A program made the position numbers and the translations under genes. A stretch of 64,000 nucleotides of DNA, taken from contig NC_134031.1 in assembly GCF_964204645.1 (NCBI RefSeq), positions 11,038,088 to 11,102,087 of the forward strand, read 5' to 3'. Below the pieces are notes generated by a model that was not told the origin of the DNA, did no database searches, and saw only the letters and a program-made list of their open reading frames with translations. Of this stretch, positions 526 to 31,798 are shown one piece after another. Every line of letters starts with the position of its first letter. Positions within the stretch are counted from its first letter, which is position 1. Origin of the DNA: Tubulanus polymorphus (taxonomy: Eukaryota; Animalia; Nemertea).

Positions 526-1141
526 GAGCTAGTACTCTAGTACTCTGGGCCATCTTCTAATTACTAATATTGAAACAAAAATAGAAAATAATATTGATAC
601 TAAAATAGAAAATAATATTGATACTAAAATAGAAAACAATGTTGAACCTAAAATAGAAGATTATATTGAAACACAAAACGAAGGTGTAACAGAATCTACC
701 TCTAACTATAAAATAGAACAAGAAAGAAATTCTAAAAATGGGCTTGCTGACATGGTTGTACTGAAAGCTGGCTTGTTGGTTTTGTATTTCTGTAGTAGAA
801 TTAATCGAACTTTGAACTGATTACTCTTTTAACAGCTAAGAGATCGATGTTGTCTTACATCGTACGAGTGTACGACAGGGGGGTCTTATTTGAAATGAAC
901 CCCTATGTCTTTTTTATATTTTATTAAAATAATATTTACATATAGTATAAATTGATAAAATAAGTTAATATCAAACTCGTACTGTTTTTTAAATAAAATA
1001 CATATATAAATTACATATGTTACCCTTATCCATTTCGTCGACTCGTCCACTCATACACAATTAAAAATTCTATAATATTTCAAATTTTAAGTATTAAGGC
1101 ACCTAATACGTATCTAATACATAAATACTTAAATTATGATT

Positions 1142-1753
1142 TTATTTTATAAATTTATATTCATATGGATATTGTAGTCTCAGAAGTAATTTGGAACCTT
1201 TATTACTTTTTAATTTATTCATATATTCATCATGTAAGTCAGTAGGTATAATTTGATTTTCTTCCAGAGATTGGTGCATAGATTTTTTATCTTTATTGTA
1301 GAATAAAACTAAAAATCTAATGTTTTCTCTAAAATCTTTTACAATTGAATTATATTTTTGATTTAAAACCCAGGTTGTTATCCCAAAATGTCTTCCAGAA
1401 AAAGCTAAATAATATAACTCACTTTCTCGCATTTTTGAATCATGTAAATTAGCACAATCATCCACGATGAATAATCTATTTGATCCTTTATAAATATCAA
1501 TTGCTATTTTTATACAATTATCTAAATTTTCTTTTACTGTTTTAGGATCTAATATAATAAACTTTTTAATCTTAACTATATCCCTATTATATGCTTTATT
1601 CATTTCATGAGTAGGACAGAATAATATTATATTATCAAAATGATTCTTATAAATAGTTTCTAACAAATCTAATATGAAATGTGTTTTACCACAGTTTGTT
1701 ACACCAGTTACTAAAACATTATGCGGTTCAAATATAAATAAATTTTTATTCAT
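1142..1753 (-). CDS. Polinton FtsK/A32-like DNA packaging ATPase (apparently intact)
   Basis: Walker A GVTNCGKT, Walker B FIVDD, FSGRHFG motif; TAAATG start. Confidence 0.9.
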   Translation of the reverse strand: MNKNLFIFEPHNVLVTGVTNCGKTHFILDLLETIYKNHFDNIILFCPTHEMNKAYNRDIVKIKKFIILDPKTVKENLDNCIKIAIDIYKGSNRLFIVDDCANLHDSKMRESELYYLAFSGRHFGITTWVLNQKYNSIVKDFRENIRFLVLFYNKDKKSMHQSLEENQIIPTDLHDEYMNKLKSNKGSKLLLRLQYPYEYKFIK

Positions 1754-2385
1754 TTAATCTTTTAATTTTACTAGATAAAATCCATTCATTAAATTTATCA
1801 TCGTACCCTTTATATTTCACTAAAGAATACTTTTTTCCTTTAAGATTTTTTTTTTCAATACTTTTTCTATTTTGTATTCTATTTCATCTGGATTTGGTAC
1901 AAGTGATAATTCTTGTTCATAAAAATAACCTAATATTTCTTCATCTTTTAAATCTTCTACTTTATAAACAAATGGTTCAGTTAATATTATCTTTTTAATT
2001 TCAAATATTTCTAGGGTAAAATTTGGAGTATAACCTTTATAAAATGTTTTTCGATATTGAGATATTCTAACATGTTGACCAATTTTAAATTTAGGTTCTC
2101 CAAAATCATGTGTAACAAATGCACCATATAAGTTATTTCAAACTATTTCTGAATTATCTTCTTTTCTAGCTTGTATAGGTTTCATATTTATAGAACTATG
2201 TTTAGAATTACTATAACCTTTCACTAAATCATCTAACACATCGATATATTTATATGTTTCATTAGCAGTAAAATATTTCCACATTCTAGTTTTCAATGTT
2301 TTATTAAATCTTTCTATAATAGATGCTTTTTTATCTGAGTGTGTTGAAAAATACTCTATATTGTTATCAGATAAATAATAATTTA
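1746..2385 (-). pseudogene. Polinton integrase C-terminal part, frameshifted, N-terminus deleted
   Basis: IIERFNKTLKTRMWKYF matches 25554-26639; fused by deletion to the end of the upstream ORF. Confidence 0.85.
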
Positions 2386-2451
2386 GATTTATTTTCAATG
2401 ACTTAAACATTTGACTTATTTTCTGGTATAATAGGTTTATAATCATCATCA

Positions 2452-2530
2452 TTAGGGTTTTCTGACTTTCGTCGAAAACCCTCTTGTAATTCTGTTGATT
2501 ATTATTATTATTTACATATTTTCCACTTTT
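2452..2530 (+). mobile_element. 5' end of Helentron/HINE-like non-autonomous element (3' end not located)
   Basis: TTAGGGTTTTC...GAAAACCCT hairpin followed by (ATT)n, same architecture as 10095-10160. Confidence 0.6.
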
Positions 2531-3923
2531 TTTCGCACATAAAATTCATCTTCTATCAGATTCGACAACTAACAGCTTCTAATCGAAATGTAGAATTCTG
2601 ATAGTAATATAACACTCATTCTTTCCGAGTAGATTCTATCTATGCACTCTCTATCCTATTTAAAACTTAAAATTACTTACTGTAAGATAACACCGGATGA
2701 TAGTAGCAATCGCCACTCGCCGTGTCGCGTACTCCCACTAACGATAAAAGACGCGTCCTGTCCTGTGGCAGGGTTGATAAGGTGTTTGACTCCCAAGTGA
2801 GAGATTGAGGGTTCGAATCCTAGTGAAACCATGCATTCAGGCAGGACACATATCAGTACAGTGCCGGCGCGCAACAATTTTTTAGTGAAACAAAATGGTG
2901 GATGGTTGAAATCATTTTCGGCTCAATGTTTATCGCGAGTTTTAGGACTTAACTGAATTTCACAAAACCATGATTTCTAAAATGAGTCAATTGATTAATT
3001 CTATTCGTAAATCAATTTACGTTGGCTACATTTCCTCAAGATTTCGAGCCGAATCAACGTGATATGGACAGAAATTGTCAAAACAAATGTAAATTAAGAA
3101 AGAAAACAACAAAACTAGTTGCGTTGATCAACAAAAATAAATCAATAGTTAATTACAATACTTCAATTTCAAAATAAGGATTGGAAAAAGTGAACAATAA
3201 GTGTGTTTGCCATGCGTCTTTAAATATTTCCCAAGAATATTTCTTTTTCTGGCCACCACCTGCCTTGACGTCAGTCTTTTTCGAGATGATTTCGCTAAAA
3301 ATACAAAACAAGACAAAATTGATGGATGGGAATCATACATGCTACAATTCACTTTAACTGCGAACATTGGAATGAGCTAAAGCAATTTTCTAGGAGGAAA
3401 AATTGAGTCAAATGATGTTTCAAAATCTGGACGGGAAAAGTTTTACTGAATTTCGCTGCCGCTCCGCTCCGCGACCAATTGATTTATTTACAATACACAA
3501 ATTCATATAATCAAATATATTCAAATATTAATGATTATTCTATGATTTAACTAAAATACACACGGCTATGAAAATATATTATAGTTTTAAATTACTTTTA
3601 ATATTTTGTTTTTAATGAACTCGACCGTTCAACCTTTAACCTAGAACAACTAAACCCCTATTACTCTTAAAATATTTATATACATGAATAGAATATATAT
3701 GAATAACATATAAATTGATAGATTATTCAATATAAAAGTAACGAGTAATTAACGAGCTCTTATAGAATAGATATATAGATATATTTTAAACATATTTCAA
3801 TATTTATTTTTGTATGAGTTATATTCTTAAACATTAAAAGTGTTAGTAAAGTGTGATTGAAATAATTCATATATAAATCATTGAACTTCTAAAATCAATT
3901 TAGTAAAAAAAGATGTATAATAA

Positions 3924-4592
3924 ATGGAACCAGAACAACCACAAACTATCAATATTACAAATAACACTGGTGTCATAAATATATACTACAAGAAGTGTTC
4001 TAAATGTGAAATAGATAAATTAGCTATAACAGAATTTAGTAAGCGTAAGATTAGCAAAGATGGTTTTCAATATTGCTGTAAAACTTGCACTAAACTATAT
4101 ACCATACAATATCGAGAAGATAATAGAGAAGCTTACAATGATTATATGACAGAATATATGAGAGGAAGATATCAAACAGATATTAATTTTAGATTGAAAC
4201 AATGTTTAAGATCTAGATTAACACAATTATTCAACAAAGAAACGCATTCAGAAACACTATCTAATTTGCTGGGTTGTTCAGATGAATTCTTAAAATCATG
4301 GATAATATATCGATTCGATGATAAAATGAATATAGATAATTATGGTGAATACTTTCATATTGATCACGTGTTGCCGATTTCTAAATTTTACATGAGTGAT
4401 GATTATAATAAGAAGCTAATCTGGAGCTGGAGAAATTTAAGGCCTTTAGAAAAGAAGGGAAACATAATTAAATCTAATAAACTAGATTTACAGTTATATT
4501 TAGATCAACTGGTTAAAGCAAAGACATTTGTTGAATTATGGAATAGTATTTCACAGAATCAACCGCATTCTGAGGTTTTGATCAGTGGTTAG
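3924..4592 (+). CDS. Zn-finger + HNH-like endonuclease (NCLDV-type)
   Basis: CxxC...CxxC, LLGCS, FHIDHVLP...NLRPL...N..KSNK; closely similar to 29358-30011. Confidence 0.75.
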   Translation: MEPEQPQTINITNNTGVINIYYKKCSKCEIDKLAITEFSKRKISKDGFQYCCKTCTKLYTIQYREDNREAYNDYMTEYMRGRYQTDINFRLKQCLRSRLTQLFNKETHSETLSNLLGCSDEFLKSWIIYRFDDKMNIDNYGEYFHIDHVLPISKFYMSDDYNKKLIWSWRNLRPLEKKGNIIKSNKLDLQLYLDQLVKAKTFVELWNSISQNQPHSEVLISG

Positions 4593-5543
4593 AAAGCCGG
4601 CAATTCTATTTTAGCTTTGTATGTCTATAATACATAGCTTTTGCTTACTACTAAAACATATGTTGCCAAATATATCTTGTTTTCAATTCTAAAGAATTAA
4701 TTAACTTCATCATAAAGAACATCTGTTACAATCCAGGCAAACATGCAGAAATAATTAGTTTGGTCGAACGTGCGCCACGTCGGCAGTTAGAAATCAACAT
4801 TCACATACATAGTACGTATTGGATATTCTCTCTCAAAACACAGTTTACAGTTCTAAATCTAAATGTAAGTAAGTACCGTTTTTGTAGTTATTATGAAGTA
4901 GGGAAACCTTTAAACATATTTAAGTACAGTAAGTCATTTTCACGATATCTTTTAGATTAAAATGGAACACAAATATGAACCAGAAATTCTAAGCCAACCA
5001 TCGGAAAAGGAACTAATGCTGCTGGATAGTGAAACTCAGGAATCAATAGAAATGGAGGATGAAACTCTCGTAACACAGTGAAGGTCTTTGTAATATAGAT
5101 ATCAAAAAATGTAATCTCGATTGTATATATCTGTTTTAATATTGTATTGTTTACTGTTAACTAAGTATTACGCAATAACACCAGTCGTTTCTTTGAATTT
5201 ATTTTCAGTTTGAGGATTTATTATCGAGGATCCGAAATGACTTATCTGGACAGTTATAGTTACCGCTCCTATAGATAGACAATAGTAGTGAGATATTAAA
5301 TCCTAATTTAAATAAAAAATAATAAAAAAACAATTACTTCAACTAGCTATTGAATTCTATTTTAATTTTTAATATTTTCTTTTCAAAAAGAGAATACTTT
5401 ATATTTTGAATAGATTCAAATAGAAATTCTTTAAATTCAAATTGCTAGGATCAGTAGTCAATACTAGAATTCTTTAACTTTAACTATTTAGTATCATTTT
5501 ATAATACTTATAATATTTTTCTTATTAAATTTCTCTAATATAA

Positions 5544-6134
5544 ATGTCAAAGAAATCGAGTAAGAATAGTAATGATATTGAAAAAACATTAGATGATTTG
5601 GGTATAAGTAATAATAAGGATCCAGTTGTTTCTAATTTTATTCAAGTAAATAACAATATTGATTATGAATACTACTTATATTGTAAACACCATCTTGAGT
5701 TACTAATTGCTGGCGGGAAATCTAAAGAGTTTTTAACTAAGACCATTACCTTTCAAGAACTAGACTCTATGAAACCCGATAAAGTAATAAAATATTTTAA
5801 GATTTATGAAGAAGCTAGATTGGCTCGAATAAATGATTCTATTTCAGATAGTATTATAAAATGATATTCAAAATTATGTAAACGGTTAATATCAATTGAT
5901 GATGAAAATAAATTATATAGTGATTTGAAAAATGATTACTTAGTTATGACTGAATTACAAAAATGGGTCGGATATGCTTCATTCCAATTAGGATCGGTTA
6001 TGACATTAATTTCTACTGGTGTCATAACATTTTCAAATATCAAACCTATGGAATATAAATCAGGTAAGAACGAAACAGATGTCGCCGTAAGACAACCAAA
6101 CGGTGAAACGAAAATGAATCAGAACAAAAATTAA
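5544..6134 (+). pseudogene. Polinton hypothetical protein with C-terminal hydrophobic segment (homolog of 27028-27630), internal stop
   Basis: Two in-frame pieces separated by TGA at 5862-5864. Confidence 0.8.
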
Positions 6135-6143
6135 CTAAAATAA

Positions 6144-6513
6144 ATGAGTGATGATATTGAGAAGAAGCCTAGAACTGAAAAACAAAAATGGTGGTCAAAG
6201 GAGTTGGAAAAAAGATCTGCAGAATTCAAAAGAGCTAAGAAAAAGAAATTAACTGATATAAATGAGCCACAGAAATTATCTGATATTGATTCAAATAACA
6301 ATCCATCTGATTCTTCTAATAGTGGAAGAAATAATTACTTATATATTACAATTGGGTTAATCACAATTATTATATTATCCGGTGTAATATATAAATCAAA
6401 ATGTCAAATCTGATGATAAAGATGATTCCAATGATGATAAACCTATTATACCAGAAAATAAGTCAAATCGTAAAGTCATTGAAACTAAAGCTAAATTATT
6501 ATTAATGGATTAA
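6144..6513 (+). pseudogene. small single-TM Polinton protein (homolog of 26646-27035), frameshifted
   Basis: YITIGLITIIILSGVIY hydrophobic segment; tail out of frame. Confidence 0.75.
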
Positions 6514-6519
6514 AATAAC

Positions 6520-7593
6520 ATGAAAAAAGAACAATATTTAAGGGATTTATATTATAACCCAGAAAGTGAAGTATCATATTCTAACGTTTCAGAATTATGG
6601 GGTAAAATTAAATCTGATAATGAAAATATAAAATATAGTGAATTAAAATCATGGTTACAAAATCAACCAACATATCAAATCCATAAGAAAATGGATAAAA
6701 CTTATTAAACAAGAAAAGTTATGGTTTCATATATCGATCAACAATGGCAAGCAGATCTAATTGATATGAAGAACTTAGAGGAATACAACAAAGGATATTT
6801 CTGGATATCAAATGTTATAGACATATTCAGTAGATACGCATGGTCAATTCCAATCAAAAATAAAACTGGTATAGAAGTGACAAATGCTTTTAAATCAATA
6901 TTTAAAGAAGCTATTCCAGATAAGATACAATTTGATGAAGGTAAAGAATTTTATAACAAACATTTTAAAAAACTATTATCTGATAACGATGTAGAATATT
7001 TTTCAACACATTCAGATCAAAAAGCATATATTATAGAAAGATTTAATAAAACATTGAAAACTAGAATGTGGAAATATTTTACTGCTAATGGAACATATAA
7101 ATATATCGATGTGTTAGATGATTTAGTGAAAGGTTATAATAATTATAAACATAGTTCTATAAATATGAAACCTATACAAGCTAGAAAAGAAGATAATTCG
7201 GAAATAGTTTGGAATAATTTATATGGAGCGTTTGTTACACATGATTTCGGCGAACCTAGATTTAAAATAGGACAACACGTTAGAATATCTAAATATAGAA
7301 AAACATTTTATAAAGGTTATACCCCTAATTTTACAGAAGAGATATTTAAGATTAAAAAGATAATATTAACTAAACCATTTGTTTATAAACTAGAAGATTT
7401 AAAAAATGAAGAAATATTAGGTTATTTTTATGAACAAGAATTATCACTTGTGCCCAATCCAGATGAAATAGAATATAAAATAGAAAAAGTATTGAAAACA
7501 AAAACTCTTAAAGGAAAAAAGTATTCTTTGGTGAAATATAAAGGATATGATGATAAATTTTATGGATTTTATCTAGTAAAATTAAAAGAATAA
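6520..7593 (+). pseudogene. Polinton retroviral-like integrase with chromodomain, frameshift at ~6705
   Basis: QADLID / QFDEG / IERFN catalytic triad; near-identical to 25554-26639. Confidence 0.9.
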
Positions 7594-8206
7594 ATGAATA
7601 AAGATTTATTTTTTATTTGAACTGCATAATATGTTAGTTACTGGAGTAACAAACTGTGGTAAAACACATTTCATATTAGATTTGTTAGAAACTATATATA
7701 AGAATCATTTTGATAATATAATATTATTCTGTCCTACTTATGAAATGAATGAAACATATAATAGAGATATAGTTAAGATGAAAAAGTTTATTATATTAAA
7801 TCCTAAAACAGTAAAAGAAAATTAAGATAATTCTATTAAAATAGCAATTGATACTTATAAAGGATTAAATACATTATTCATTATAGATGATTGCGCAAAT
7901 TTACATGATTCAAAAGTGAGAGAAAGTGAGTTATGTTATTTAGCTTTCTCTGGGAGACATTTTGGAATAACAACATGGGTTTTAAATCAAAAATATAATT
8001 CAATTGTTAAAGACTTTAAGGAGAATATAAGATTTCTAGTTTTATTCTGCAATAAAGATAGAAAATCTATGCAACAATCATTGGAAGAAAATCAAATTAT
8101 ACCTACTGAATTACATGATGAATATATGAATAAATTAAAGAATTATAAAGGTTCTAAATTATTACTGAGGCTTCAATTTCCATATGAATATAAATTTATA
8201 AAATAA
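7594..8206 (+). pseudogene. packaging ATPase, disrupted
   Basis: GVTNCGKT, IDD, SGRHFG; frameshift and stop at 7823-7825. Confidence 0.9.
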
Positions 8207-8574
8207 GATATTTTAAGTATTTATGTATTAGGTATGTATTAGGTATGTATTAGATACGCATTAGATACCTTAATACTTAAAACCCCCTTTTTTAAAATAA
8301 ATATTATTTATACAATTTTCAACCAATTTATTTTTATTTTTTCGACTAATATATGAATAAGTTTGAAAATAATAAAGGTTATTTATTATTACTGAGGTTT
8401 CAAAATAAATTTTTAAAAAATATATAATTTAAGGTATTTTCAAATAATATGTATTAGATATGTATTGGATACATAAATACTTAAAACCCCTTTTTTATTT
8501 ACTATTATTTTATACAATTTTCATTCAATATTATTATTTGAGTTAAAGATAATTAATATCTTAATCACTTTCAC

Positions 8575-9456
8575 TATCGTACCCTAACAATTTTTTCAAA
8601 TTCTCTACCGAATCTTCTTCAAATTCTTCATTATTGTTATACTTATTCATCCTTTTTACCGCATCATCAATAGTTCCTACTTTATCTTTCGTAAAAAATG
8701 TATCCACATTATCTTTAATATCAATATCTGTAACTATATTTTCATTATCATCTTTCTTAGTGTTTGCTCCTAATATTTCATTTACAATGTTTGTTCCTAA
8801 TATTTTTTAGCAGCAGATAAATCTAATTTATCATTACTAGGTTCCTTAAATAAAAACTCACCTAATAAATCTTCATATAATTCTTTACCATTTACTTTTT
8901 TATTTGCAACAAACTTTGTAACATATTTAAATGGGTGTTCTATAAATTCTCTTATACCAACACGTTCTATAACATTAGTAATACGTACATTTGTATTCAT
9001 ATGATTATTCCAATTTGATGGAAAGTTTGAAAATTCACCATTACAATAATCACAATAATTTCTATTTTCACTAATATTTAATATTATTTCATTATTTGAT
9101 GTAGAAGGTAAAACATTATTTGATGTAGAAGGTATAACATTATTTGATGTAGAAGGTAAAACATTATTTGATGTAGAAGGTATTACATTATTAGATGTAG
9201 AAGGTATTACATTATTTGATGTAGAAGGTAAAACATTATTTGATGTAGAAGAAATATTATCTATATTATCATTAATATTATCTTTTTTATTTATATCATT
9301 ATTACGTTCAATTAAATATTCTTTGTATTGATTTAATTCATTTAATAAAAATGTTCCAATATATTCATTTATTCTTTTATAAGGTATTACATAATATAAA
9401 TTATCATTGATTTCTTTATCAGCTTTTATTCTTCCATATACTTTACCTCCTACCAT
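8575..9456 (-). pseudogene. variable post-capsid ORF with 9-aa repeats (NNVLPSTSN) and a Zn-finger-like motif; frameshift near 8800
   Basis: Positional equivalent of 23184-24333; 27-bp tandem repeats ~9090-9250; reading continues in another frame to ~8575. Confidence 0.6.
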
Positions 9457-9505
9457 TTATTATAATTTTTTTAATCAAAATTAAAATTTTAATATTTCAT
9501 AACAC

Positions 9506-10094
9506 TTAATACATAACACTATTTAATTGAGAATTTACAACATTTAATTGCGCATCAGATATAATATAAATATGCATTTTGAAATTTAAGCTTCCTTTTT
9601 TCTTTGTCATGAATAATTGTATTCCATCTTTAGTGTTCTGTAATTTCTTCCCAGAACCATGTAATGAATTATCCTCTATTGTTCTAAAATCTAACCATAG
9701 TGCGTATTTATTGCCGGTATAATAATCAATTTGATTAATATTACAATTTTCAGATGATTTCACTTTTTCATTCATAAAATGTTTTCTAATTTCTGGCCAT
9801 TGATCTATCATTCTCATTCCTTGACAAAATATTTTATTTGCTATTCCTTCGATAGTTATTTCTACTTTTGTTATTTCAGGATTATAATACTTATCAACCT
9901 GTATTGCGCCATTAGAATATGTTGCAATGGTAAAAAATATTAATATACCTTTAAAAGATCTTCTTGGGAAGTTAATATTCTCATTAATAATTTCATCATT
10001 TGCATTAATAGTTACAGTTTTAAATTTATCAATATAATCATATAATAATGAAAATCCTTGATTGTATTGAGTTTGAATTATACTTGAAATATTT
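9506..10094 (-). pseudogene. major capsid protein of element B, 3' half
   Basis: NISSIIQTQYNQGF...ISDAQLNVVNSQLNSVMY matches the C-terminal half of 21904-23151. Confidence 0.9.
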
Positions 10095-12285: not shown

Positions 12286-12375
12286 AAATTGTTAGATTGT
12301 TGAGCATTTGAAACCACTGCCCAAGTGAGCATGGTGTCCCTGGACCCCTAGTTTGGTTTCGTCGCCCGCAACAAT

Positions 12376-12780
12376 AGTAATAGGGGTTTAGTTGTTTCAT
12401 ACCAAAGGTCGAAAGGTCGAGCCCGAGAAATTTTCCAAAATGTTAAAATAACAACAATTTCTACTTGAATTAGTCGCGTACACTCCTAATTCAAGTAGAA
12501 ATTATTATTATTTTAACATTTGGAAAATTTATCAACCTCAACCTTTCGACCTTTGATATGAAACAACTAAACCCCTATTACTCTTAAAATATTCATATAT
12601 ATATATGAATAACATTTAAATCATTGAACTTCTAAAATCAATTTTAATAAAAAATATAGTATTAAAATGGAAGCAAATAAGTACTACTGCCCAACATGTA
12701 ATATCGATATAGATAAATCCCAAAAAGCAAGACATAATAAAACTAGAACACATTTAGAGAATAAATTGAAATTAGAATAT
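12376..12780 (+). repeat. left terminal inverted repeat (contains 207-bp palindrome and first 38 codons of PolB)
   Basis: Reverse complement of 30227-30628 with only a handful of differences. Confidence 0.95.
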
Positions 12781-15700
12781 GGAGATGATATATTAGAAAA
12801 TAAATTAGAAGAATTAAAGGATGAAAAAGAAACATACAAATGTGATACATGTAATCAATCATTCAGTGATAAAAGATATTATAAAGAACATTTAAAATCT
12901 ATAAGTCATATTAGAAATAAGAATAATGATATTTTAGGTGAAGATTATTTTGATAATGATAACGATAAGAAACAGAAGACAATTAAAAGAATAAAAAATA
13001 AATTAAACAATAAAAGACCATACATGGAAGATGTAAGAAATTATATTAATTCATTAGATAATAAAAAAGATATAGAGATAACCGAAGCATTTAAAAGTGA
13101 TATTGGTCCAGCAGCTATCGAGTTTAAATTTCATAAAGGTAAAACATTAGAAGAAAATAAAAAACATTTAGAAAATATGAAAGAAATAATAAAAATAATT
13201 ACAGATGTTGAATATCCTAAAATTAGTATATCAGTTAAAGTAAAGTTTATAAAATCTGAAGATAAACCAATATATAATATAAATTCTCATTCACAACATA
13301 TTATATCTAAACAACATATAGATGATAAATTAGATAAATGTTATAATGAAGTAAAAACTAAAATAGAAGAGAAATATTTTGAAGGATCTGGTTTAATATT
13401 TGATGAGATAATATTTATAACTTTACATGTTTATAACACAAAATATAATAAGTTAACTAAATCAAAACCAATTGATGAAAATAATTTATCATATTATAAA
13501 GATGATAGTATAAATGGAACAAGTTATATTAAACTACCATTTAAAACTAATGGTGTAATAAATATACAAAATTTTGATAATAAATGTTTTCTATGGGCTA
13601 TAATAAGTTGTTTACATCCAACAGAAGATATTACACATAGTTTTAGATTAACTCATTATAAACCATTTGAAAATAATTATAAGATAGATAAGTATCCTGT
13701 TAGAATTAAAAACATCCCAAAAATAGAAAGAGATAATAATATAAAGATAAATGTGTTTGATTTAATTAAATTACCAAATACAAAAGGAAATAATATTAAA
13801 CATTATACATTAGAACCTTTATACCTATCAAAAGATTATGATTCAAATGATGTTATAGATATACTATATTATGAGAATCATTACATGTGGATTAAACAAA
13901 TCGATTTATTTTTTAAATCAGAAAATGATTTTGATAATAAAATATATCTATGTAGAAAATGTTTACATAAATTCAGAACTGAAGGTGCATTATTAAATCA
14001 TAAACAACTATGTAATAATCATGATTATTGTAAATTAGTTTTACCAAATGAAAAGGATAAAATATTAGAATTCAAAAAATATGATTACAAAAATAAAGTA
14101 CCATTTGTAATATATGGAGATTTTGAATCATTAAATAAAGAATTAACAGATTAAGATAGAAAAGATATATATTATAAAAGAAAGAAATTAAATTCTAATG
14201 AAAGTGATTATTCAGATGAACCACCAATAACAAATACTATTAAAAAGATTCATCAATCAGCTGCAGCTTTCGGGTTATATATTAAATCTGATTATCCAGA
14301 ACTAATTGAAAGTGAATATTATAATTATAGAAATGAAAATGTTATCAATCATTTTTGTGACTTATTAATTGAATATGAAATAAGATTTAGTAAATTATTG
14401 AATACAAATAAAGAAATAATTATGACAGAAGAAGATAAAGAAGAATTTGCGTTTGCAGATAAATGTTATTATTGTGAAAAGATATTTAATTATAAAGATA
14501 AAAAAGTAAGAGACCATGATCATTTGAATGGAAAGTTTAGAGGCGCGGCACATGAGAATTGTAACTTACAAGCTAAGAAAATTAACTTTGTACCAGTTAT
14601 ATTTCATAATCTATCAGGATATGATGCACATTTATTTATCAAACAGTTATGTCATAAAATAGAAGAAATCAATAATGAAATAGAAATATTAAATTCAAAT
14701 AGATCAAAAGATAAAATACCAACTTATAAATTTAGAATGTTAGCTAAAACATCTGAGAATTATATATCTTTCCAATTTGGTTGTCTAAGATTTATAGATT
14801 CATATAGATTTTTAAGTAGTTCATTAGACAATCTATCAAAATCATTGGTTGATGATGAATTAAAGATATTAAAAGAATATTACCCAAATAATGATGATTT
14901 TCAATTAATGAGATATAAAGGAGCAATTCCATATTCTTTCTATAAAAATCATAATGATTTTAAAATAACTGAATTATTAAAAGAACAATTTTATGATGAA
15001 TTAAAAAATGAATATGTTAAAGATGAAGTATATAATAGAACATTGAATATTTGGAATCATTTCAAAATAGAAAATCATGGGCAATTAGTAGATTTATATT
15101 TAAAATCAGATGTATTATTATTAACTGATATATTCGAAAGGTTTAGAGATGTAAACCTAAAATATTTTAACATTGATCCTTGTCATTGTTATTCATCACC
15201 AGGTTTAACATGGGATTGTGGATTAAAATTTACAGATATAAAAATGGATTTGTTAACAAATATAGATCAATTACTATTATTTGAAAAATCTATAAGAGGA
15301 GGTGTTTCAGGTGTATTGGGTGATAGATATTTCAATGTAAATGATAATCCTGAATATAAATTATTATACATAGATGCAAATAATCTTTATGGTTGGGCAA
15401 TGATGGAACCACAACCTTATGGGATGTTTGAAATAACTGAAGTTTTACAAATTGATAAATTTGATTGGAAGAAAAGAATCCTAGATATTGCAGATGATTC
15501 AGATACTGGTTACTTCTTTGTTGTAGATTTAGAATACCCTGAAAATATTAAATTCAAATCTAGAAATCTAGCATATTGTCCCGAACATAAAACTGTTAAA
15601 CATGAAGAATTATCAAATTATCAAAAAAGAATTAAACCTGATAATCATATTCATACTGAAAAGTTAATGGTAACTCAAGAAGATAAATATAATTACGTTG

Positions 15701-16698
15701 TGCATTATAGAATGTTGAAGTTTTATTTGAATCAAGGAATGATATTAAAAAAAGTACATAGATATATTTCATTCAGTCAATCTAAATGGTTAGAAAAATA
15801 TATAGATTTTAATACTACACAGAGAACTAAATCTAAAACTGATTTTGAAAAAGATTTCTTCAAACTAATGAATAATGCATTCTATGGTAAGACTTGTGAA
15901 AACATAAGAAATAGAAATGATATCGAGTTAGTCAGTAATGGTAAAAGAATTAGGCATTTACAATCATATCCTAAGTTTATAGGTAACAGAATATTTGATG
16001 AAAATTTAGCAGCAGTTAAAATGAAAAGAACTTCAATGAAGTTCAATAAACCTATTTATGTTGGTGCTGCAGTTCTAGAAATTTCAAAATTCCTAATGTA
16101 TAAATTTTATTATAATATACTACAACCTCATTTTGGAGAAAAACACATAGAAATTCTATACTTTGATACCGACAGTTACATATTAAAGATTAAAACTGAT
16201 AACATAACAGATGATTTAAAAACATTAAAACACCATTTTGATTTTAGTAATTATCCTAAAAATCATGAATTGTTTAGCAATGATAATAAAAAAGTTCCCG
16301 GTAAATTCAAAGATGAATTAGGTGGTGAAGAAATGATAGAGTTCATTGGTATTAGATCTAAAATGTATTCATATAAAACTAAAGAACATGAAGCTAAAAA
16401 GTTAAAAGGAATTACCAAAAGCGTTGTTGAAAAGAATATTCATTTTAAAGATTACATCAATTGTATATTCAAAGAAGAAGTTAGAAAACATAAGATGAAA
16501 TGTTTGAGATCTGAAGATCATGAAATGTATATTGAAGAGATAGAGAAGATAAGTCTAAACCCATTTGATGATAAAAGATATATTTTAGATGATGGAATCC
16601 ACACAGTCGCCTATGGTTGCAATTTAGATGAATATATAAAATTCAAAAGAGAAGAAACAAAAGAAAATGAGATTATGAAAAGGATTCTAGCGTGTTAA
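12667..16698 (+). pseudogene. polB: protein-primed family B DNA polymerase (~1340 codons), single in-frame nonsense at 14152-14154
   Basis: N-terminal C2H2 fingers; ExoI YGDFES, ExoII FHNLSGYD, ExoIII YLKSD; YIDANNLYG, KLMNNAFYGK, YFDTDS; both ORF pieces in the same frame; element B has CAA where A has TAA. Confidence 0.95.
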
Positions 16699-16726
16699 TC
16701 AATTTCAATAAAAATTTGTATAATAA

Positions 16727-17068
16727 ATGGAGAGTAAACAAGTACACAGTGAATTCTTAGATAGAATTAAAGATACCACAAATGTAAAATCTGTAGATTA
16801 TAAATTCAAAAAGTTAACAGAATTAACAATTCACAAGAAATATTTAATTACTAACATTGAAACAATTACTAATAAATATGGAGATAAATTAGTAATTCAT
16901 TTAGAATATGAAGGATTAAAAGGAAATACATATAAATTCAGAACATATTTACCAGATAGATTTCATAGATTATCAAGTGAAGATCTAGAAGAATTATGTT
17001 CTGGAGATTTCTATTTCGTATACAAAGGTAAGAATGAAAAAGGGCACCATGAAATAGATTTCGAATAA
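16727..17068 (+). CDS. conserved small Polinton protein (possible OB-fold ssDNA-binding protein)
   Basis: Homologs at 36942-37288, 63145-63497, 53154-53480, 40-312; the function is inference only. Confidence 0.7.
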   Translation: MESKQVHSEFLDRIKDTTNVKSVDYKFKKLTELTIHKKYLITNIETITNKYGDKLVIHLEYEGLKGNTYKFRTYLPDRFHRLSSEDLEELCSGDFYFVYKGKNEKGHHEIDFE

Positions 17069-17085
17069 GAAAATATATAAAATAA

Positions 17086-17841
17086 ATGGTAGAATTAAAA
17101 GAATATAGAATATATGTTGATTCTAGAAAACTTACAAATTATAAATCTCATAATTTACTAGTACAATTAGACAGAGAATTCAAGAATTGTGTAGATTTAA
17201 AATTAGTTAATATAAGTTTATGTAATTCTTTTTACAATATATCAGATAAAACTTTTGAACATAGAGGGTTTATGATTTATATGAGAAATAAAGATAAATG
17301 GTTTCATATATTTTTAAAACCAGGATTATATAATTTAGAATCATTAGCGCAGGAAATTAATAGAAGAGCTCGGTTGAAAATCGGGGGCACTTCAGTATTT
17401 GAAATTAAATTTAATAAAATTGATAGTACTAATAAAATAAGAATAAAGATATCTAATGAACAACATAAATTTATGGTAAACAAACCACTGGCTAAAATGT
17501 TAGGAATTAAACCGCTTACAGTTACTGGAAACGCAGAAGGCAGCTCAAATATAATACCTTTTACACATTTTTATATTTATTGCAATTTAATCGAGCCTAC
17601 AAAAACTTTCGAAGCAACTAAAGAAACAATTTGTAGTTCTAGTATATTAAATATTTTACCATTAAAAAATGTTAAACAATTTGGAACTCAAATAAATTAT
17701 AATTTAACAGAATGTGATTTTAAACCATGCATTCCTAAATTTAATAATTTTAAATTAGAAATTAGAAATCATAATGGATACTTAATTGATTTAAATAATT
17801 TCCCTGTAATTTATGAATTAGTTATAAGATGTAAAGAGTAA
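17086..17841 (+). CDS. minor capsid protein (penton, PX-like)
   Basis: IYVDS...NSFYNIS...PGLYN...YIYCNLIE...ILNILP...LEIRNHNG..IDLN pattern typical of Polinton single jelly-roll pentons. Confidence 0.8.
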   Translation: MVELKEYRIYVDSRKLTNYKSHNLLVQLDREFKNCVDLKLVNISLCNSFYNISDKTFEHRGFMIYMRNKDKWFHIFLKPGLYNLESLAQEINRRARLKIGGTSVFEIKFNKIDSTNKIRIKISNEQHKFMVNKPLAKMLGIKPLTVTGNAEGSSNIIPFTHFYIYCNLIEPTKTFEATKETICSSSILNILPLKNVKQFGTQINYNLTECDFKPCIPKFNNFKLEIRNHNGYLIDLNNFPVIYELVIRCKE

Positions 17842-17857
17842 TTTTTTCACTATATAA

Positions 17858-18214
17858 ATGAATATAACTGTTGGACCAAGTATATGTTTTGGATTTGATT
17901 TTAAACGTGAGAAAGAAATGAAATTTAACATTAATGATGTAATAACACATATCAAAAATATTGTATTTTCTAATGAAACAACATTTGAGTATGAAACAAC
18001 AATAGATAAAGAAACTTTAAATGTAGAAAAGATTACTAATTTAATTAGAGAATCTTTAAGATTTTATGAATTAGATGAAGATTTTATCATCGATGATATT
18101 AAAAAAATACTAATTGAAATATATACAAATGAAACTAGTAATGAAATAAATGTTGAAATAATCATCACTAAGTTAACTAAATATTTTGATGATAGTAATT
18201 TTTTTGATAAATAA
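17858..18214 (+). CDS. hypothetical protein
   Basis: TAAATG start; homolog at 35826-36151. Confidence 0.7.
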   Translation: MNITVGPSICFGFDFKREKEMKFNINDVITHIKNIVFSNETTFEYETTIDKETLNVEKITNLIRESLRFYELDEDFIIDDIKKILIEIYTNETSNEINVEIIITKLTKYFDDSNFFDK

Positions 18215-18436
18215 ATGAGTGATAATAAGTGGATAATAACTGGATTATATAATGGCGCATTACTATCAGTTGGAACTGTTGGTTATTCAATGGTATTAAA
18301 AAAAGTATTTAAAATGGGAAGTGTTAATGTTGATAGATTTGATATAAATGATATTTTAAAGTTAACATTAGCAGTTACTTTATCTAATTTAACTATTGAT
18401 TATTTGGAAAAACAAAAATATATTCCTCCCATATAA
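18215..18436 (+). CDS. small hydrophobic protein (putative membrane)
   Basis: Two hydrophobic helices; near-identical copy at 35604-35825. Confidence 0.75.
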   Translation: MSDNKWIITGLYNGALLSVGTVGYSMVLKKVFKMGSVNVDRFDINDILKLTLAVTLSNLTIDYLEKQKYIPPI

Positions 18437-18459
18437 ATACATAATTTTTTGCTAAATAA

Positions 18460-18882
18460 ATGGCTTCTGCAATTATAACTATTATAGGATCAGCAATTGT
18501 TAACGCTTTAGCATTTACTGGTGGTGGTTATTTATTTAAACATATTGATAAAAATAGTTCATTAGGAGAACAAAGAAGACATAACTTAGCGTTAGAGAAA
18601 TACAATAAAGCTGCAGAAGAATATAGAGAAAAGAGGCAAAACTATATGGATTACATCAATAAAGAATTATATGATCAGAAGATTTCACATAGAGATTTTC
18701 AATCAGTTGATGATGCAATGAGTTTATATAACGCAGTAACAAATAAAGAAAAATTACATCTATACAAACCTAAATTATCAGATTATTATACCCCAAGTAA
18801 AGAACAACAGAAATATGAAATAATATGGATTTTAGGTGGAACAGTTATTGTTATATTTGTTGCTTATAAGTTTACTAATTAG
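18460..18882 (+). CDS. protein with N- and C-terminal hydrophobic segments and central coiled coil
   Basis: MASAIITIIGSAIVNALAF...; WILGGTVIVIFVAY; homolog at 35179-35579. Confidence 0.75.
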   Translation: MASAIITIIGSAIVNALAFTGGGYLFKHIDKNSSLGEQRRHNLALEKYNKAAEEYREKRQNYMDYINKELYDQKISHRDFQSVDDAMSLYNAVTNKEKLHLYKPKLSDYYTPSKEQQKYEIIWILGGTVIVIFVAYKFTN

Positions 18883-18901
18883 TAATTTTTATTCTAAATA
18901 A

Positions 18902-20161
18902 ATGGAAGATAAAGTTGATAGTATTGATATTATTCCTCATGATATAAATAAAACTAAATTAAAAACATATTTAGAAAAACAAATATTAGAATTTGAAAGT
19001 GACTTAAAGATAAAAATGGAAAATATATTTGATACATATGAAGTTACTTTTACTCGAGATGAATATCATATATATAAAGTAAAATCTAATATGAAATATT
19101 GGCAGAATCAATTAAATTTTGCTGTTTATTGTGCAACAACAGGATGTGGAATTAGTTGGAATGATCATTTAAATAACTTAGATAAAAATTTGAAGTATTC
19201 TGATTTAAAATTAATTCACACAATATTTAGATTTCACTCATATTTTCAAATCAGAATAATATTAAATGAATTAGAATGTCCTTTACCCGGGTCTAAATAT
19301 TTTAAAGAATTAGATAATAATATTAATATATCCAAGTTTTATAAAATATGTAATGAATTTAATATAAATATTAATTCCGATTTCAGAGCGCATGGTAAAT
19401 TGCAAGGTGTTGGTGAAGAGTATGAAATAAAAAGAATTGATTATATGCATAGAATTTCAGCTTATCATAATCATAAAATTGATAATGATAATGGTTGGGT
19501 TAATTTCATTTTAGAAAATGGTGAAGGTTTTACAAAATCAGGTATACAAAGAATAAATCAATCTATTAGAATTTATTTGATATGTATTTTAGGCGCTCAA
19601 GTTGAAACAAGATCCCAAATAATTGGAAATGATAACACTTCATTCGATGCGCAGAAACAGTTTAAAGTATTATTTGAAGATTCCATACATAATGATAAAA
19701 ATAGATCGATTCCAGAAAACATTATAAGATATCAAAATTATTTAGATAAATCTCATGTAAGACTTAATTATTGTATAGGCCCTAATCTATTAATTATTTC
19801 TAATGATTTAGTATTGAAGATGGGAAATATAATTGGTTATAATAATCTAATTAAAACTGCAACAATAAATAATTCATTTGGATTAAATGATATAAATAAA
19901 AAGATTATTACTGCTCCAAAATTAATGGAAGGTGAAAAAAATAAAAAACATATTCAATCAACTGAAACTAAAACTAAGAATATTAAATTGGTTAATGATT
20001 CTAAAATAAAAGATTACAATACATCAGAAAATATTAGAACTGATAAAATTCAACATGATATAATTAAACTAAATGATGATAATAAATCCCATGAAAATAC
20101 TAAATTAGCTATAACTTGTATAGGAATTGTAATCAGAGGAATATTATATTTTAAATTTTAA
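18902..20161 (+). CDS. conserved Polinton protein (WQNQLNFAVYCATTGCG) with C-terminal TM; in-frame fusion of two genes of element B
   Basis: First 38 aa match 34724-35158, the remainder matches 33344-34707. Confidence 0.75.
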   Translation: MEDKVDSIDIIPHDINKTKLKTYLEKQILEFESDLKIKMENIFDTYEVTFTRDEYHIYKVKSNMKYWQNQLNFAVYCATTGCGISWNDHLNNLDKNLKYSDLKLIHTIFRFHSYFQIRIILNELECPLPGSKYFKELDNNINISKFYKICNEFNININSDFRAHGKLQGVGEEYEIKRIDYMHRISAYHNHKIDNDNGWVNFILENGEGFTKSGIQRINQSIRIYLICILGAQVETRSQIIGNDNTSFDAQKQFKVLFEDSIHNDKNRSIPENIIRYQNYLDKSHVRLNYCIGPNLLIISNDLVLKMGNIIGYNNLIKTATINNSFGLNDINKKIITAPKLMEGEKNKKHIQSTETKTKNIKLVNDSKIKDYNTSENIRTDKIQHDIIKLNDDNKSHENTKLAITCIGIVIRGILYFKF

Positions 20162-20177
20162 TTTTTTTATTATGTAA

Positions 20178-21878
20178 ATGGATGTAGAAGGTGGAGAAGA
20201 TTATGAAATGGAAGAAATGGGAAATAATAATGAAGGATATATTGATGATGATTATAATGATGCAGGTGCTAATATTGATAATGATGATGAATCAGCATAT
20301 AATAATAATTTAGGTGAAGATGATGATTATGATGATGATTATGATGGTATTAATTCCGAATTACGTGAAAAATTAAATAAATATTTAAAAGCTCCTGAAA
20401 GTGGTAGAATTTCAACTAGAACAGAAAGAAAAGAATTTATGAAACTATTAGTAAAACAACAAGAAAAATATCCTGATAAACCTATGGAATTATATAAAAT
20501 GAAATCTAGAGTAACAGATACAATTGTTAACGAATTACTACCAATAGCTGTAATAGATGAAATTGATACTGAAGGTGTTGTAGAACAAATTTTTAAAGAT
20601 GACCCATATTTCACGAATAATTTAGAATTTAAAAATGATTCATGGTATTATAATCTTGAATTAAATAGGAATACTGTATCAATTCAATTATCTAGAATGG
20701 GTCAAGAAAATATTTTTGAACCTGGAATGCGAGCATTATCTACAATTGAAGGTTCAAAAGGTGGTAGAGAATTTCTCAGAATTATATGGAATGCAATCGA
20801 TAGAATAAATGAAAAAGAACCAATTCCTAATATTGATATAAACAAATATTCACCATTTAAAAATCCAAATCCAAATCCTACTGATTTTGATCCAGAAATG
20901 GAAGAGAATAGAAATCGATTAGATAGATTAAGATCTTCAACACCCGAAACATCGAGAAGAGACACTCAACAAATTGATAATGATTCAAGTAAATTACAAT
21001 TAGAAAAACAAATTGATAGATTAAGAGATTCAGAAGAAGAAATGAATAGTACTGGAATAAATCGACTGCAATATTTACTAGAAAAAGGATTATTTGATTT
21101 AACTGATGATGAATTAGAAGCATTTCCTGAACAAACACGTAGAGAAATTAAAGGTACGCAAGAATCAGCTGATAAAATTGCGCATGATAAAAGTATAAGA
21201 GATTTTAAAATTAGAACTTTAGAAAAAGAATTAACTGATAAAAATAAAGAAATAGAACAATTAAAATTAGATAGAGATAATAAAGTTATTGAAGAAATTG
21301 AATTTAAAAAAAGAAATGCATATTTAGAAAAAGAAATTGATGATTTAGAATATAACATAGAATTACAAAAAGAAGAAATTAAATTATTATTAAAATCATA
21401 TGATTATAATATTAATAGATTAAAAGTTATTTTTAAAGATTTGTTGATTAAACCAAATTCTGAAATATCATTAAAAGACAGAATAAAATTATTATTTAAG
21501 TTAGAAGGAATAACAATTCTTTCAATTCTAACATCTGTAACTATGTTATTTACAACAATTGGTTTAGCAATATCAAATGCTTTGAAATCTACTCCTACTC
21601 CTACTCCAAATAAACCAGATAAACCTCCAGGTAATAATTCTATACAAGATAAAGTTAAAGATGGTTTAAAGAAATTAGCAAAATATTTATGGGAACTATC
21701 AAAGAAATCTGCTGCAGCTTTACCAGGAGATATTGCTTCAATTGTTGGTTTTATATTGAAATCTGCAGGAAACATTATTAACTTTGCTGCTGAACATATT
21801 ATTTTATTTTTAATTACAGTTGTAAGTGCTATTATTTTTGGTTTAGTAAATATGATATCAAAAAATATCAAAAAATAA
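20178..21878 (+). CDS. acidic/coiled-coil protein with C-terminal multi-TM region
   Basis: D/E-rich N-terminus, heptad region, hydrophobic ITILSILTSVTMLFTTIGLAI and IILFLITVVSAIIFGLV. Confidence 0.8.
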   Translation: MDVEGGEDYEMEEMGNNNEGYIDDDYNDAGANIDNDDESAYNNNLGEDDDYDDDYDGINSELREKLNKYLKAPESGRISTRTERKEFMKLLVKQQEKYPDKPMELYKMKSRVTDTIVNELLPIAVIDEIDTEGVVEQIFKDDPYFTNNLEFKNDSWYYNLELNRNTVSIQLSRMGQENIFEPGMRALSTIEGSKGGREFLRIIWNAIDRINEKEPIPNIDINKYSPFKNPNPNPTDFDPEMEENRNRLDRLRSSTPETSRRDTQQIDNDSSKLQLEKQIDRLRDSEEEMNSTGINRLQYLLEKGLFDLTDDELEAFPEQTRREIKGTQESADKIAHDKSIRDFKIRTLEKELTDKNKEIEQLKLDRDNKVIEEIEFKKRNAYLEKEIDDLEYNIELQKEEIKLLLKSYDYNINRLKVIFKDLLIKPNSEISLKDRIKLLFKLEGITILSILTSVTMLFTTIGLAISNALKSTPTPTPNKPDKPPGNNSIQDKVKDGLKKLAKYLWELSKKSAAALPGDIASIVGFILKSAGNIINFAAEHIILFLITVVSAIIFGLVNMISKNIKK

Positions 21879-21903
21879 ATAATTAATTTTTTTTGTTAAA
21901 TAA

Positions 21904-23151
21904 ATGAGTGGGATTTATATAAGTCCTTCGAAGATTTCTAGAATATCTAATGCTATTAAAGCAGAAAGATCACATCATATAATTACTCATAACCCTTCAA
22001 ATATTAATCCCGATGAAACTTTATACGTTAGAATCCTTAGATTAACACAAAATACTTTTTACGTTCCAAATAGTATTTATTTATCAGCCGATATAAAAGT
22101 AATCGGTAATAATAATAATTATGTCGTTGATAATGTTGGAAGATATTTGATTAAAAAGTTAACCATAAAGATTGGTCCAGAAACAGTTTTCTCATTAGAT
22201 GATTATAATTTATTTATGCATTATAAAGATTTATGGTTAACTAAAGAAAATAGAAATAATATGATATTTCAAGGCATCCAATCAGAAAACCAAAATAAAT
22301 TAAGATCAGAAGCTAATAGTGCAATATTAACAAATGATGTAGATAAATTGATAAAAAGTATATATGGAAGCAAATATAAAATTCCATTAGACTTTGAATT
22401 GATAAATAATAATGCACCTTTATATAAATACGCAATTCAAGAAGATATTATATTTGAGATAACATTTGCTCCTGTAAATGAAATTGTATTATCTAGCGTT
22501 AATAAAGATATGAGTTATAAATTATCGAATATATGTTTAGAATATGATACAGTAACTGATGAAAATATTTCAAGTATAATTCAAACAAAATATAATCAAG
22601 GGTTTTCATTATTATATGATTATATTGATAAATTTAAAACTGTAACTATTAATGCAAATGATGAAATAATTAATGAGAATATTAACTTTCCTAGAAGATC
22701 TATTAAAGGTATATTAATATTTTTTACTATTGGAACGTATACTAATGGTGCAATAAATGTTGATAATTATTATAATCCTGAAATAACAAAAGTAGAAATA
22801 ACTATCGAAGGAATAGCGAATAAAATATTTTGTCAAGGAATGAGAATGATTGATCAATGGGTAGAAATTAAAAAACATTTTATGAATGAAAAAATAAAAT
22901 CATTTGAAAATTGTAACATTAATCAAATTGATTATTATACCGGTAATAAATATGCATTATGGTTAGATTTTAGAACAACTGAAGATAATTCATTACATGG
23001 TTCTGGAAAAAAACTACAAAATACAAAAGATGGGATCCAATTATTTATGAAAAAGAAAAAGGGAATCAAAAATTTTAAAATGCACATTTATATTATATCT
23101 GACGCGCAATTAAATATTGTAAATTCACAATTAGATAGTGTTATGTATTAA
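21904..23151 (+). CDS. major capsid protein (double jelly-roll, PY/hexon-like)
   Basis: 415 aa beta-rich protein, highly conserved between copies; HNPSNINPDETLYVRI, IPLDFE, LEYD and ALWLDFR motifs recognised from animal Polinton capsids. Confidence 0.8.
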   Translation: MSGIYISPSKISRISNAIKAERSHHIITHNPSNINPDETLYVRILRLTQNTFYVPNSIYLSADIKVIGNNNNYVVDNVGRYLIKKLTIKIGPETVFSLDDYNLFMHYKDLWLTKENRNNMIFQGIQSENQNKLRSEANSAILTNDVDKLIKSIYGSKYKIPLDFELINNNAPLYKYAIQEDIIFEITFAPVNEIVLSSVNKDMSYKLSNICLEYDTVTDENISSIIQTKYNQGFSLLYDYIDKFKTVTINANDEIINENINFPRRSIKGILIFFTIGTYTNGAINVDNYYNPEITKVEITIEGIANKIFCQGMRMIDQWVEIKKHFMNEKIKSFENCNINQIDYYTGNKYALWLDFRTTEDNSLHGSGKKLQNTKDGIQLFMKKKKGIKNFKMHIYIISDAQLNIVNSQLDSVMY

Positions 23152-23183
23152 AATTTTAACTTTAATAAAAAATCTTATATTAA

Positions 23184-24333
23184 ATGGAAGGTGGAATATA
23201 TGAAATACAATCTCCAAGTGAAATGATATCAGATATATATTATATATTACCTTATGATGAATACAGTAAGTATTTTGGAGATTACTTTAATCAATTCAAA
23301 TATAGAATAAGTAAAATAGATAAGAATATTGAAACAAAAATAGAAGATAATATTGAACCTAAAATAGAAGATAAGAATGATATTGAATATAAAATAGAAG
23401 ATAATATTGAATCTAAAATAGAAGATAATGTTATACCTTCTACATCGAATTATGATATTGAATCAAAAAAGACAAATGAAAAATATTGTGACGTATGTAA
23501 ACAGTATAAAAGTTATAAGAATTGGGCAACTCATCTTAATTCACTCAAGCATAAGAAAAATAAGAATAAGATTTTAAATGAATTGAATAATGATAGTGAA
23601 ATTGATAGTGATAATGTTAAAGAAGATAAATATTGTGAAGAATGTGATAAATATATAAGTCGTAGTAATTTTTCAAAGCATAAATTAACACAGATACATT
23701 TGGATAATATAGAAAGAAATATATGTGAAAAGTGTAATGTTGTTGTATTACCTAAAGATAGAATTAAACATGATAATTCTTTTGAACATACAATAAAAGC
23801 TGCTGATTTAAATTACCTTTATAGAGCACCAAGTGTATTTTTTGATATCGAAAATAATGATCATAGGAAATTATATAGATCAATTTTTATCGATTATGTA
23901 AGAAATAATCCAAAACAAGTATTATCAGATCTAAAAACTCCTTCGGATGATTATAAAAATTTATCTAAATAATTATTGGAGTATACATTATTTCATAAAA
24001 TTTAAAAATATAGATTTTTTAACAGAATTGAAAAAAGTTGCTGTTAATGATAATTATGATAATAAAAGTGATAACTTTGATGAAATAATTCAATACTACA
24101 GTTATGAAGATTTTTCACAGGATGTTATAAATAAAATAAGAAATGAAGCAAAAAATGAATACAAAAATATAAGTGAAGACAAATTAAACCAATATATTTA
24201 TTTAACTTATGAATTCTGGGTTAAGGGTTTGAACGGTAATGGTTATCATTTTAAACTATTAGGTGAAAGAAGATCGCAAGAATTAAGAGATGCATGGATC
24301 AAATTGTTTTCAGAATTAGAATCAGAAAAGTAA
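23184..24333 (+). CDS. variable multi-Zn-finger protein with KIEDNIE repeats (23184-23972) plus overlapping 23947-24333, probably one frameshifted gene
   Basis: Three CxxC-x12-H-x5-H-like fingers; the second ORF lacks the TAAATG start and overlaps by 26 bp. Confidence 0.6.
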
Positions 24334-24359
24334 TTTAAAATATGAATATAATACCCTTT

Positions 24360-24888: not shown

Positions 24889-24946
24889 TAGGGGGAGGTA
24901 TATAATGCATATCTAATACATATCTAATACATAGGTATACAAATAG

Positions 24947-26639: not shown

Positions 26640-26645
26640 CTTATT

Positions 26646-31778: not shown

Positions 31779-31798
31779 TTATTTAACAAAAAAATTAA

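Follow-up and report, generated by a model that had tools for sequence, protein, structure and literature searches.

Long terminal palindromes of fixed polarity in a Polinton lineage with a protein-primed DNA polymerase

To our knowledge, neither the exit of a Polinton from its chromosome nor the restart of copying on a displaced single strand has ever been shown. The standing model of Polinton replication, a panhandle formed by long-range pairing between terminal inverted repeats (TIRs) as described in the accessible part of PMC4046053, needs two TIRs 18 kb apart to meet. In a 64-kb stretch of DNA (the window, whose coordinates are used unless a contig is named) we identified a Polinton in which each TIR begins with a long palindrome. 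The locus raises the question of what a hairpin does at the tip of an element that carries its own protein-primed polymerase, and whether it is anything other than an accident of one copy.

The element occupies positions 12376-30628 (18,253 bp). The TIR pair, 12376-12780 on the forward strand and 30227-30628 on the reverse strand, measures 405 bp at 98.8% identity, and the left TIR includes the first 38 codons of the polymerase gene. The 6-bp target site duplication (TSD) AACAAT stands on both sides of the element (12370-12375 and 30629-30634, forward strand), and a 31-bp satellite surrounds the insertion site. The element is a Polinton by the features that give the group its name, which are TIRs, TSD, termini, protein-primed polymerase (pPolB), integrase, ATPase and double-jelly-roll (DJR) capsid protein. 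The TIRs fall within 100-1500 bp and the length within 13-25 kb, the TSD is 6 bp long, and the AG...CT termini read AGTA...TACT (Polinton TIRs, TSDs and end motifs after PMC8097293 and 10.1101/2023.08.22.554363, pPolB anatomy after PMC11071308, as far as the text of these sources is accessible). We do not assign it to the narrower, vertebrate-type set of intact Mavericks with eight core genes, the adenovirus-like maturation protease (PRO) being absent in our scan: Pfam detected none among the 17 element ORFs, and tblastn with one distant protease-like ORF, from metagenome locus L118, gave E values of at least 1.9.

The pPolB gene (12667-16698, forward strand; DNA_pol_B_2 match, E 2.8e-16) encodes zinc fingers, a TP domain with Ser241, a vOTU domain with Cys307 and His405, an EndoVII-like domain and the exo/pol region. 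An in-frame stop (14152-14154) breaks the focal frame; the gene is whole in the relatives L002 and L004 described below. The DJR capsid protein (21904-23151, forward strand; model pTM 0.84) has no match to the PDB by sequence alignment, whereas a fold search of the model with Foldseek recovers the PBCV-1 capsid (E 9.5e-17) and the mavirus MCP (E 2e-11). On the reverse strand lie an A32-like packaging ATPase (25004-25561; Pfam Pox_A32, E 1e-12), an rve integrase with chromodomain (25554-26639; Pfam rve, E 2.8e-9, and Chromo, 1.9e-5) and a free-standing endonuclease VII/HNH-like ORF (29358-30011). The latter has no Pfam match and is placed by PHROG 1035 (E 3.8e-15); it has a homologue in L004 (E 1.1e-24) and is also kept in L002 and in sister copies.

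Other features are found in and around the element. Across 30089-30340, the first 38 pPolB codons, which the right TIR carries, run directly into what looks like a leftover of the EndoVII-like ORF's tail; this points to a recent lengthening of the TIR through recombination. Nested AT-rich inverted repeats at 24354-24894 (outer arms 83 nt, 88%) lie between two convergent gene blocks; they are unmatched in the sister copy at 8257-9210 and are probably an inserted foldback element. A 91/115-bp tandem array (28046-28434) separates the integrase block from the EndoVII-like ORF. The window also contains at least five decayed or partial family copies near satellite arrays (1103-10094, 31114-44165, 49368-54810, 59482-63940) and, on the reverse strand, a LINE (55457-59392) with a GDSL-esterase ORF1 and an endonuclease/reverse-transcriptase ORF2. 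Together with the satellites, this LINE suggests a eukaryotic host, probably an animal.

The left palindrome (12376-12582, 207 bp) consists of a single stem that begins at the first base of the element. The outer arm (12376-12473) and inner arm (12486-12582) match in 89 of 98 columns, with eight mismatches and one bulge, and enclose an asymmetric 12-nt loop, TCGCGTACACTC (12474-12485, forward strand). Its minimum free energy is -78.5 kcal/mol, whereas shuffled versions average -14.1; the z is -21.9, and none of 200 shuffles folds as well. The right palindrome (30423-30628, 206 bp) has the same polarity and a z of -21.1, and one G fewer in its inner arm is the sole difference inside the palindrome. 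Folding thus bears out the original prediction of a fold-back of about 207 bp at the TIR tips, mirrored at 30423-30628. The left and right palindromes are also 88% direct repeats, so that recombination between them might remove the element as a loop, with one palindrome staying behind; LTR-like footprints would then be predicted in the host.

The outer end motif (12376-12421, forward strand), AGTAAT followed by two GGTCGA boxes, is the true terminus and would serve as both integrase end and replication origin. The inner, inverted copy (12537-12582, reverse strand) carries fixed C-to-T differences (ATC for ACC, GGTTGA for GGTCGA) and is followed by CTTAAAA and then the promoter region. The focal element holds the end motif four times, and the predicted count of two motif copies per end stands. 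However, their arrangement had been described as head-to-head, while the two copies at each end in fact converge on the loop, and each opens with AGTA at its own border of the palindrome. Within the end motif, two AGGTCG boxes 8 nt apart (12407-12421) are kept in all relatives; one may speculate that they are a candidate site for the N-terminal zinc fingers of pPolB or for the integrase.

The mismatches in the stem are not distributed evenly between the strands. All six focal transition mismatches read C.A when the top strand folds and G.T when the strand with its 3' end at the terminus does, a bias with a chance probability of 0.006 given the C/G content of the arms. The 3'-end strand is predicted to fold at -87.8 kcal/mol, 9.3 better than the top strand, with its 3' end paired flush with the inner AGTA. 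In the relative L004, three of three transitions are likewise G.T on the 3'-end strand, two of them at sites homologous to focal ones, but they are offset by eight other mismatches and the two strands fold equally (-69.4 and -69.5). We have down-weighted the strand-specific argument because L004 has no net energy difference. The same bias could arise if the inner arm had drifted towards A, the top strand being A-rich, and we give it moderate weight only.

Metagenomic searches yielded 130 loci, of which 80 were kept, including four close relatives with 68-71% identity to the N-terminal ORF of pPolB. Two of these, L003 and L004, reach the element end, while L001 and L002 stop short, and a terminal palindrome is present in both contigs that reach it. 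L004 (pPolB 68% identical) starts with a 257-bp palindrome, AGTAATGG...CCATTACT, with a z of -13.9. Twelve of its first 28 nt differ from the focal end, and 10 of the 12 positions still pair in both elements. Its distal arm has only a 12-nt AT-rich match to the focal arm, yet pairs with itself at 39 of 42 positions. The loop region differs, containing a small GC-rich stem. The L003 contig (71%) starts inside such a palindrome with the inner motif visible. L004 also repeats the opening 17 nt of the end motif a third time, in direct orientation, just before the pPolB start (contig positions 948-964). A small gene of 113 aa precedes pPolB in L001, L003 and L004 and follows it in the focal copy.

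Variation in hairpin size is apparent in run X5, from which 4530 reads were placed out of about 12% of the run; the run may derive from the species or sample of the window itself and hence is not independent. Single reads join the outer and inner motifs via shorter spacers (30 reads at 12422-12545, 19 at 12422-12537, and six and four at 12420/12419-12541), giving hairpins of about 96 bp (30 reads) and about 121 bp (10 reads). In five of the ~121-bp reads the loop is a related one, TCGCACACTC, and the 11-bp arms beside it, AAAATAAATTC / GAATTTATTTT, are new and pair perfectly; the loop core ACACTC is present in all focal and read hairpin sizes. Among 40 of the 95 variants in X5, 37 lie in the stem; 22 of these form 11 mirrored pairs at similar frequency, seven restore a focal mismatch and eight are unmirrored. 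The mirrored variants support paired change without proving it, because they are unphased and because 252 of the 4530 reads fit both arms and could mimic mirrored variants. Two short pieces from run X1 (share 0.07), one identical to the focal arm, were kept out of the evidence, and runs X3 and X4 count as one sample.

Taken by sequence, the palindrome is a maintained feature of the lineage rather than an accident of one copy, since L004, L003 and the X5 reads all carry terminal palindromes; the original prediction had turned on whether other family members would share it. An assembly artefact was considered and rejected, the reads and the independent contig L004 both showing the structure. No AGTA...TACT terminal palindrome was detected among the 76 distant metagenome loci, most of them on contigs that stop before any element end. 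One of them, L005, encodes a distant pPolB (37% identity) with an inverted repeat spanning 354 bp (664-1017) upstream of it, which may be a further end structure; candidate matches also occur in L015-L017 and L030. In the viral_contigs set, the 21-nt end motif gave 0 matches and the integrase and capsid queries no locus; pPolB alignment gave two distant loci, L117, with a plain AGTAGT-type end, and L118, in which no element end was identified. The 36 matches of a degenerate end pattern in genome_contigs were taken as chance, none having a palindrome that spans the match.

The hairpin is not universal in the family. A decayed sister copy ends at 43969-44165 (reverse strand) in an outer-type motif and about 150 bp without inner arm or fold-back (z 0.26). 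A terminus of a related lineage (52817-52862, forward strand) has an outer-type motif identical at 35 of 46 positions and likewise no palindrome (z 1.28), and the distant Maverick L117 ends plainly with tandem repeats. We conclude that the hairpin is dispensable in relatives because these three ends are plain, although neither of the two plain window ends (44165, 52817) belongs to a demonstrably intact copy. Between the plain terminus at 52817 and position 53480, repeats richer in GC stand together with a homologue of the 113-aa gene, and a second copy of this body lies at 1-511. A further sister copy (3465-3665, forward strand) has only an inner-type arm of about 200 bp with a different arm sequence, followed by CTTAAAA and an EndoVII-like gene, and no outer arm for it was found in the window. 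The 3465-3665 and 44165 ends share their first 115 nt with four differences, all of outer/inner type; on this sequence likeness they may be the halves of one palindrome of about 400 bp, each minus one arm.

These ends allow the polarity of the hairpin to be compared across copies. Without exception, the five outer ends (both focal ones, 44165, 52817 and L004) read CCA(A/G)AGG and lack a GGTTGA box, whereas each of the five inner ends (again both focal ones, 3665, L004 and L003) carries T at this position together with one or more GGTTGA boxes, the two focal ends not being independent of each other in either count. The unphased read tables show no flipped majority. Of 430 inner reads, 301 have G>A at 12548; among 40 of the 95 X5 variants, neither the partner of this site in the outer arm, 12410, nor the diagnostic sites 12402 and 12556 appear. 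The 454 loose read ends before 12376 agree at only 0.35, and the majority sequence they form fails to match the interior, which that of flipped ends should do. About 65% of inner-end reads continue into the interior, a rough value from depth bins that skips the AT repeat behind the inner end, and a minority of solo or flipped forms may exist among the reads.

The machinery for protein priming appears complete. The linking Ser of the TP domain, in a G-S-G linker, is present in 48 of 51 aligned pPolBs, while all 51 retain the Cys and His of vOTU. In the pPolB model, Ser241 lies between a helix (215-237) and a strand (244-256), which is the TP layout; the accessible part of PMC11071308 places the linking residue there and describes a likeness to the little finger of Y-family polymerases. 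The best structural matches of our model are Y-family little-finger domains, at an E value of 0.011 that falls below significance. Judged from the alignment, the protein-priming residues (TP Ser, vOTU Cys and His) are intact. The original prediction had suggested ends like those of parvoviruses or poxviruses; the fixed polarity of five outer and five inner ends, the lack of any sign of flipping in the reads and these intact residues argue against flip/flop ends.

We tentatively favor, at somewhat less than even confidence, a role for the hairpin as a local duplex origin and 3'-end cap for protein priming on the displaced strand. During strand-displacement replication each displaced strand would bear one 3' terminus. 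This end would fold back and pair with the inner origin copy 200 bases away, rebuilding a duplex origin locally, without an 18-kb panhandle between the TIRs. The same fold would cap the 3' end and provide a template for mending ends that have been nibbled. Primed at the 3' terminus by its own TP domain, pPolB would then unfold the stem and copy the outer arm, the loop, the inner arm and finally the genome. The ends would not invert, because priming by TP copies the arms and loop in the old order. Slips near the loop would produce the series of hairpin sizes. The fixed C-to-T changes would keep the inner motif paired, as G.T on the 3'-end strand, yet make it a poor integrase end. We infer folding in vivo and use as origin or cap from what is observed, namely the palindrome, its upkeep in divergent relatives, a variable arm length with a shared loop, the fixed polarity and the intact TP and vOTU residues.

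Alternatively, the hairpin may be a by-product, which we consider unlikely. Snap-back or template-switch errors of pPolB would duplicate the terminus, conversion would keep the arms alike, and the hairpin would be tolerated without function. Arm lengths of about 96, 121, 207 and 257 bp and the existence of plain ends are consistent with such an origin; conversion alone explains the mirrored changes, and homogenisation of the arms in this way would give covariation without function. However, free conversion should erase the fixed outer/inner differences, which occur at homologous sites in elements whose pPolBs differ by about 30%. Hairpins of different size retain the loop motif, and the palindrome is kept at both ends despite the expected chromosomal instability, long AT-rich palindromes being unstable in chromosomes. 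Somewhat less probable still is hairpin self-priming, in which the folded 3' OH is extended into the genome, the closed duplexes are nicked by an EndoVII/HNH-like protein, and asymmetric resolution keeps the orientation. The flush 3' end of the predicted fold would be extendable, and the EndoVII-like ORF is retained in L002, L004 and the sister copies. The model has also been proposed for Halocafeteria elements (10.64898/2026.07.28.741278), and one-orientation left ends are reported for some parvoviruses (PMC1185569), each in the accessible part of the source. The intact TP Ser and vOTU dyad speak against self-priming, as do the lack of a flip/flop signal and of any HUH/Rep gene by Pfam in the 17 element ORFs. 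The EndoVII-like domain of pPolB, previously put forward as a candidate for nicking the hairpin, is no specific sign of this activity because it is listed for many distant pPolBs.

Lower again in probability is an aid to excision. Since the stem starts at the first base, an extruded cruciform would place a four-way junction on the border of host and element, a geometry that follows from the sequence; an EndoVII-like nuclease would cut it diagonally, and the freed 3' fold-back ends would be opened by TP priming without inversion. A junction-resolvase-like ORF adjoins the right end, and the scheme fits the fixed polarity and is compatible with the local-origin mechanism. Nevertheless, the position of this ORF differs between relatives, comparable EndoVII/HNH ORFs frequently encode selfish homing nucleases, plain-ended relatives are integrated too, and no empty sites or free ends were seen in data that consist of integrated or assembled copies. 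If true, cruciform excision would amount to hybrid telomeres, supplying the missing excision step of Polintons and linking the replication of protein-primed and hairpin-ended DNA viruses. Two further readings are very improbable, and to the same degree. The 207-bp unit had been proposed to move alone as a mini-element, here a MITE mobilized by the Polinton integrase. Its AGTA...TACT ends would suit this, as would the roughly estimated 35% of inner-end reads without a visible run into the interior. However, its flanks (AACAAT/CTTAAA and TTTAAG/AACAAT) show no TSD of its own, none of the seven motif sites in the 64-kb window is a solo unit, and its size is not fixed (about 96 to 257 bp). The stem might instead act as RNA in an outward transcript, as a terminator, insulator or source of dsRNA, for which the strand-specific G.U wobble speaks; against this, the genes at both ends point inwards, and Rfam gave only sub-threshold matches to miRNA-precursor hairpins. 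A tip hairpin maintained through paired changes in divergent relatives provides a 200-base substrate for distinguishing in vitro between protein priming, self-priming and junction cutting.

The element shares with Polintons/Mavericks its length of 18.25 kb, 405-bp TIRs, 6-bp TSD, AGT...ACT ends, pPolB with TP and vOTU, rve integrase, A32 ATPase and DJR capsid. It differs in that a palindrome, about 96 to 257 bp long in the lineage, makes up each TIR tip and contains a second, inverted end motif, in ending with AGTAAT rather than (AGT)2, and in that no adenovirus-type protease was found. The terms 'palindrom' and 'hairpin' are absent from the vertebrate and nematode surveys PMC8097293 and 10.1101/2023.08.22.554363 and from PMC12220804, and the accessible portions of PMC11296320, PMC1864894, 10.64898/2026.10.13.758929 and 10.1101/2022.07.28.501842 hold nothing on tip palindromes.

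Parvovirus ITRs, as described in the available text of PMC11575299 and PMC1185569, share a terminal fold-back of 100-250 nt with a flush 3' end, which in our element belongs to a predicted fold. The ends of AAV occur as independent flip and flop forms (PMC11575299, in part). In contrast, the present element shows no HUH Rep/NS1 (Pfam, 17 ORFs) and no flip/flop signal, and is a dsDNA element with its own protein-primed polymerase. In Streptomyces telomeres a palindromic 3' end folds back while a 5' terminal protein primes, and the fold-back serves end repair (PMC5449611, in its available part). They differ, according to the same text, in their several short palindromes, internal origin, end patching by Tap/Tpg and unrelated proteins, so that the analogy concerns only how the ends work; Pfam and PHROG matches of the element ORFs suggest no Tap/Tpg-type genes. 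Casposons (PMC4046053, in part) are also self-synthesizing, some have TIRs with palindromes, and a panhandle origin model has been described for them. However, they are prokaryotic, use a Cas1 integrase and have palindromes internal to the TIR.

The closest precedent comes from virophages and PLVs of Halocafeteria seosinensis. The available part of that preprint (10.64898/2026.07.28.741278) describes palindromes at TIR tips, 52 nt long in subtype 5, and proposes hairpin priming. The virophages and PLV subtype 4 resemble our element in having a palindrome in the TIR beside the TSD of an integrated Polisuviricotina genome. According to the preprint's section on palindromes, such ends are found preferentially with non-pPolB replicases, although its supplement may list pPolB cases. 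By comparison with what is described there, the palindromes reported here are two to five times longer, accompany a TP-type pPolB, and show compensatory turnover, a shared loop and fixed polarity. The preprint is the sole description of terminal palindromes in the literature searched, where long palindromes at the tips of a TP-type Polinton are not reported (subscription journals, Repbase and bioRxiv supplements lay outside the search). Terminal palindromes as such are therefore already in print. Contrary to the suggestion in the available text of that sole printed report, terminal palindromes are not limited to elements without protein priming.
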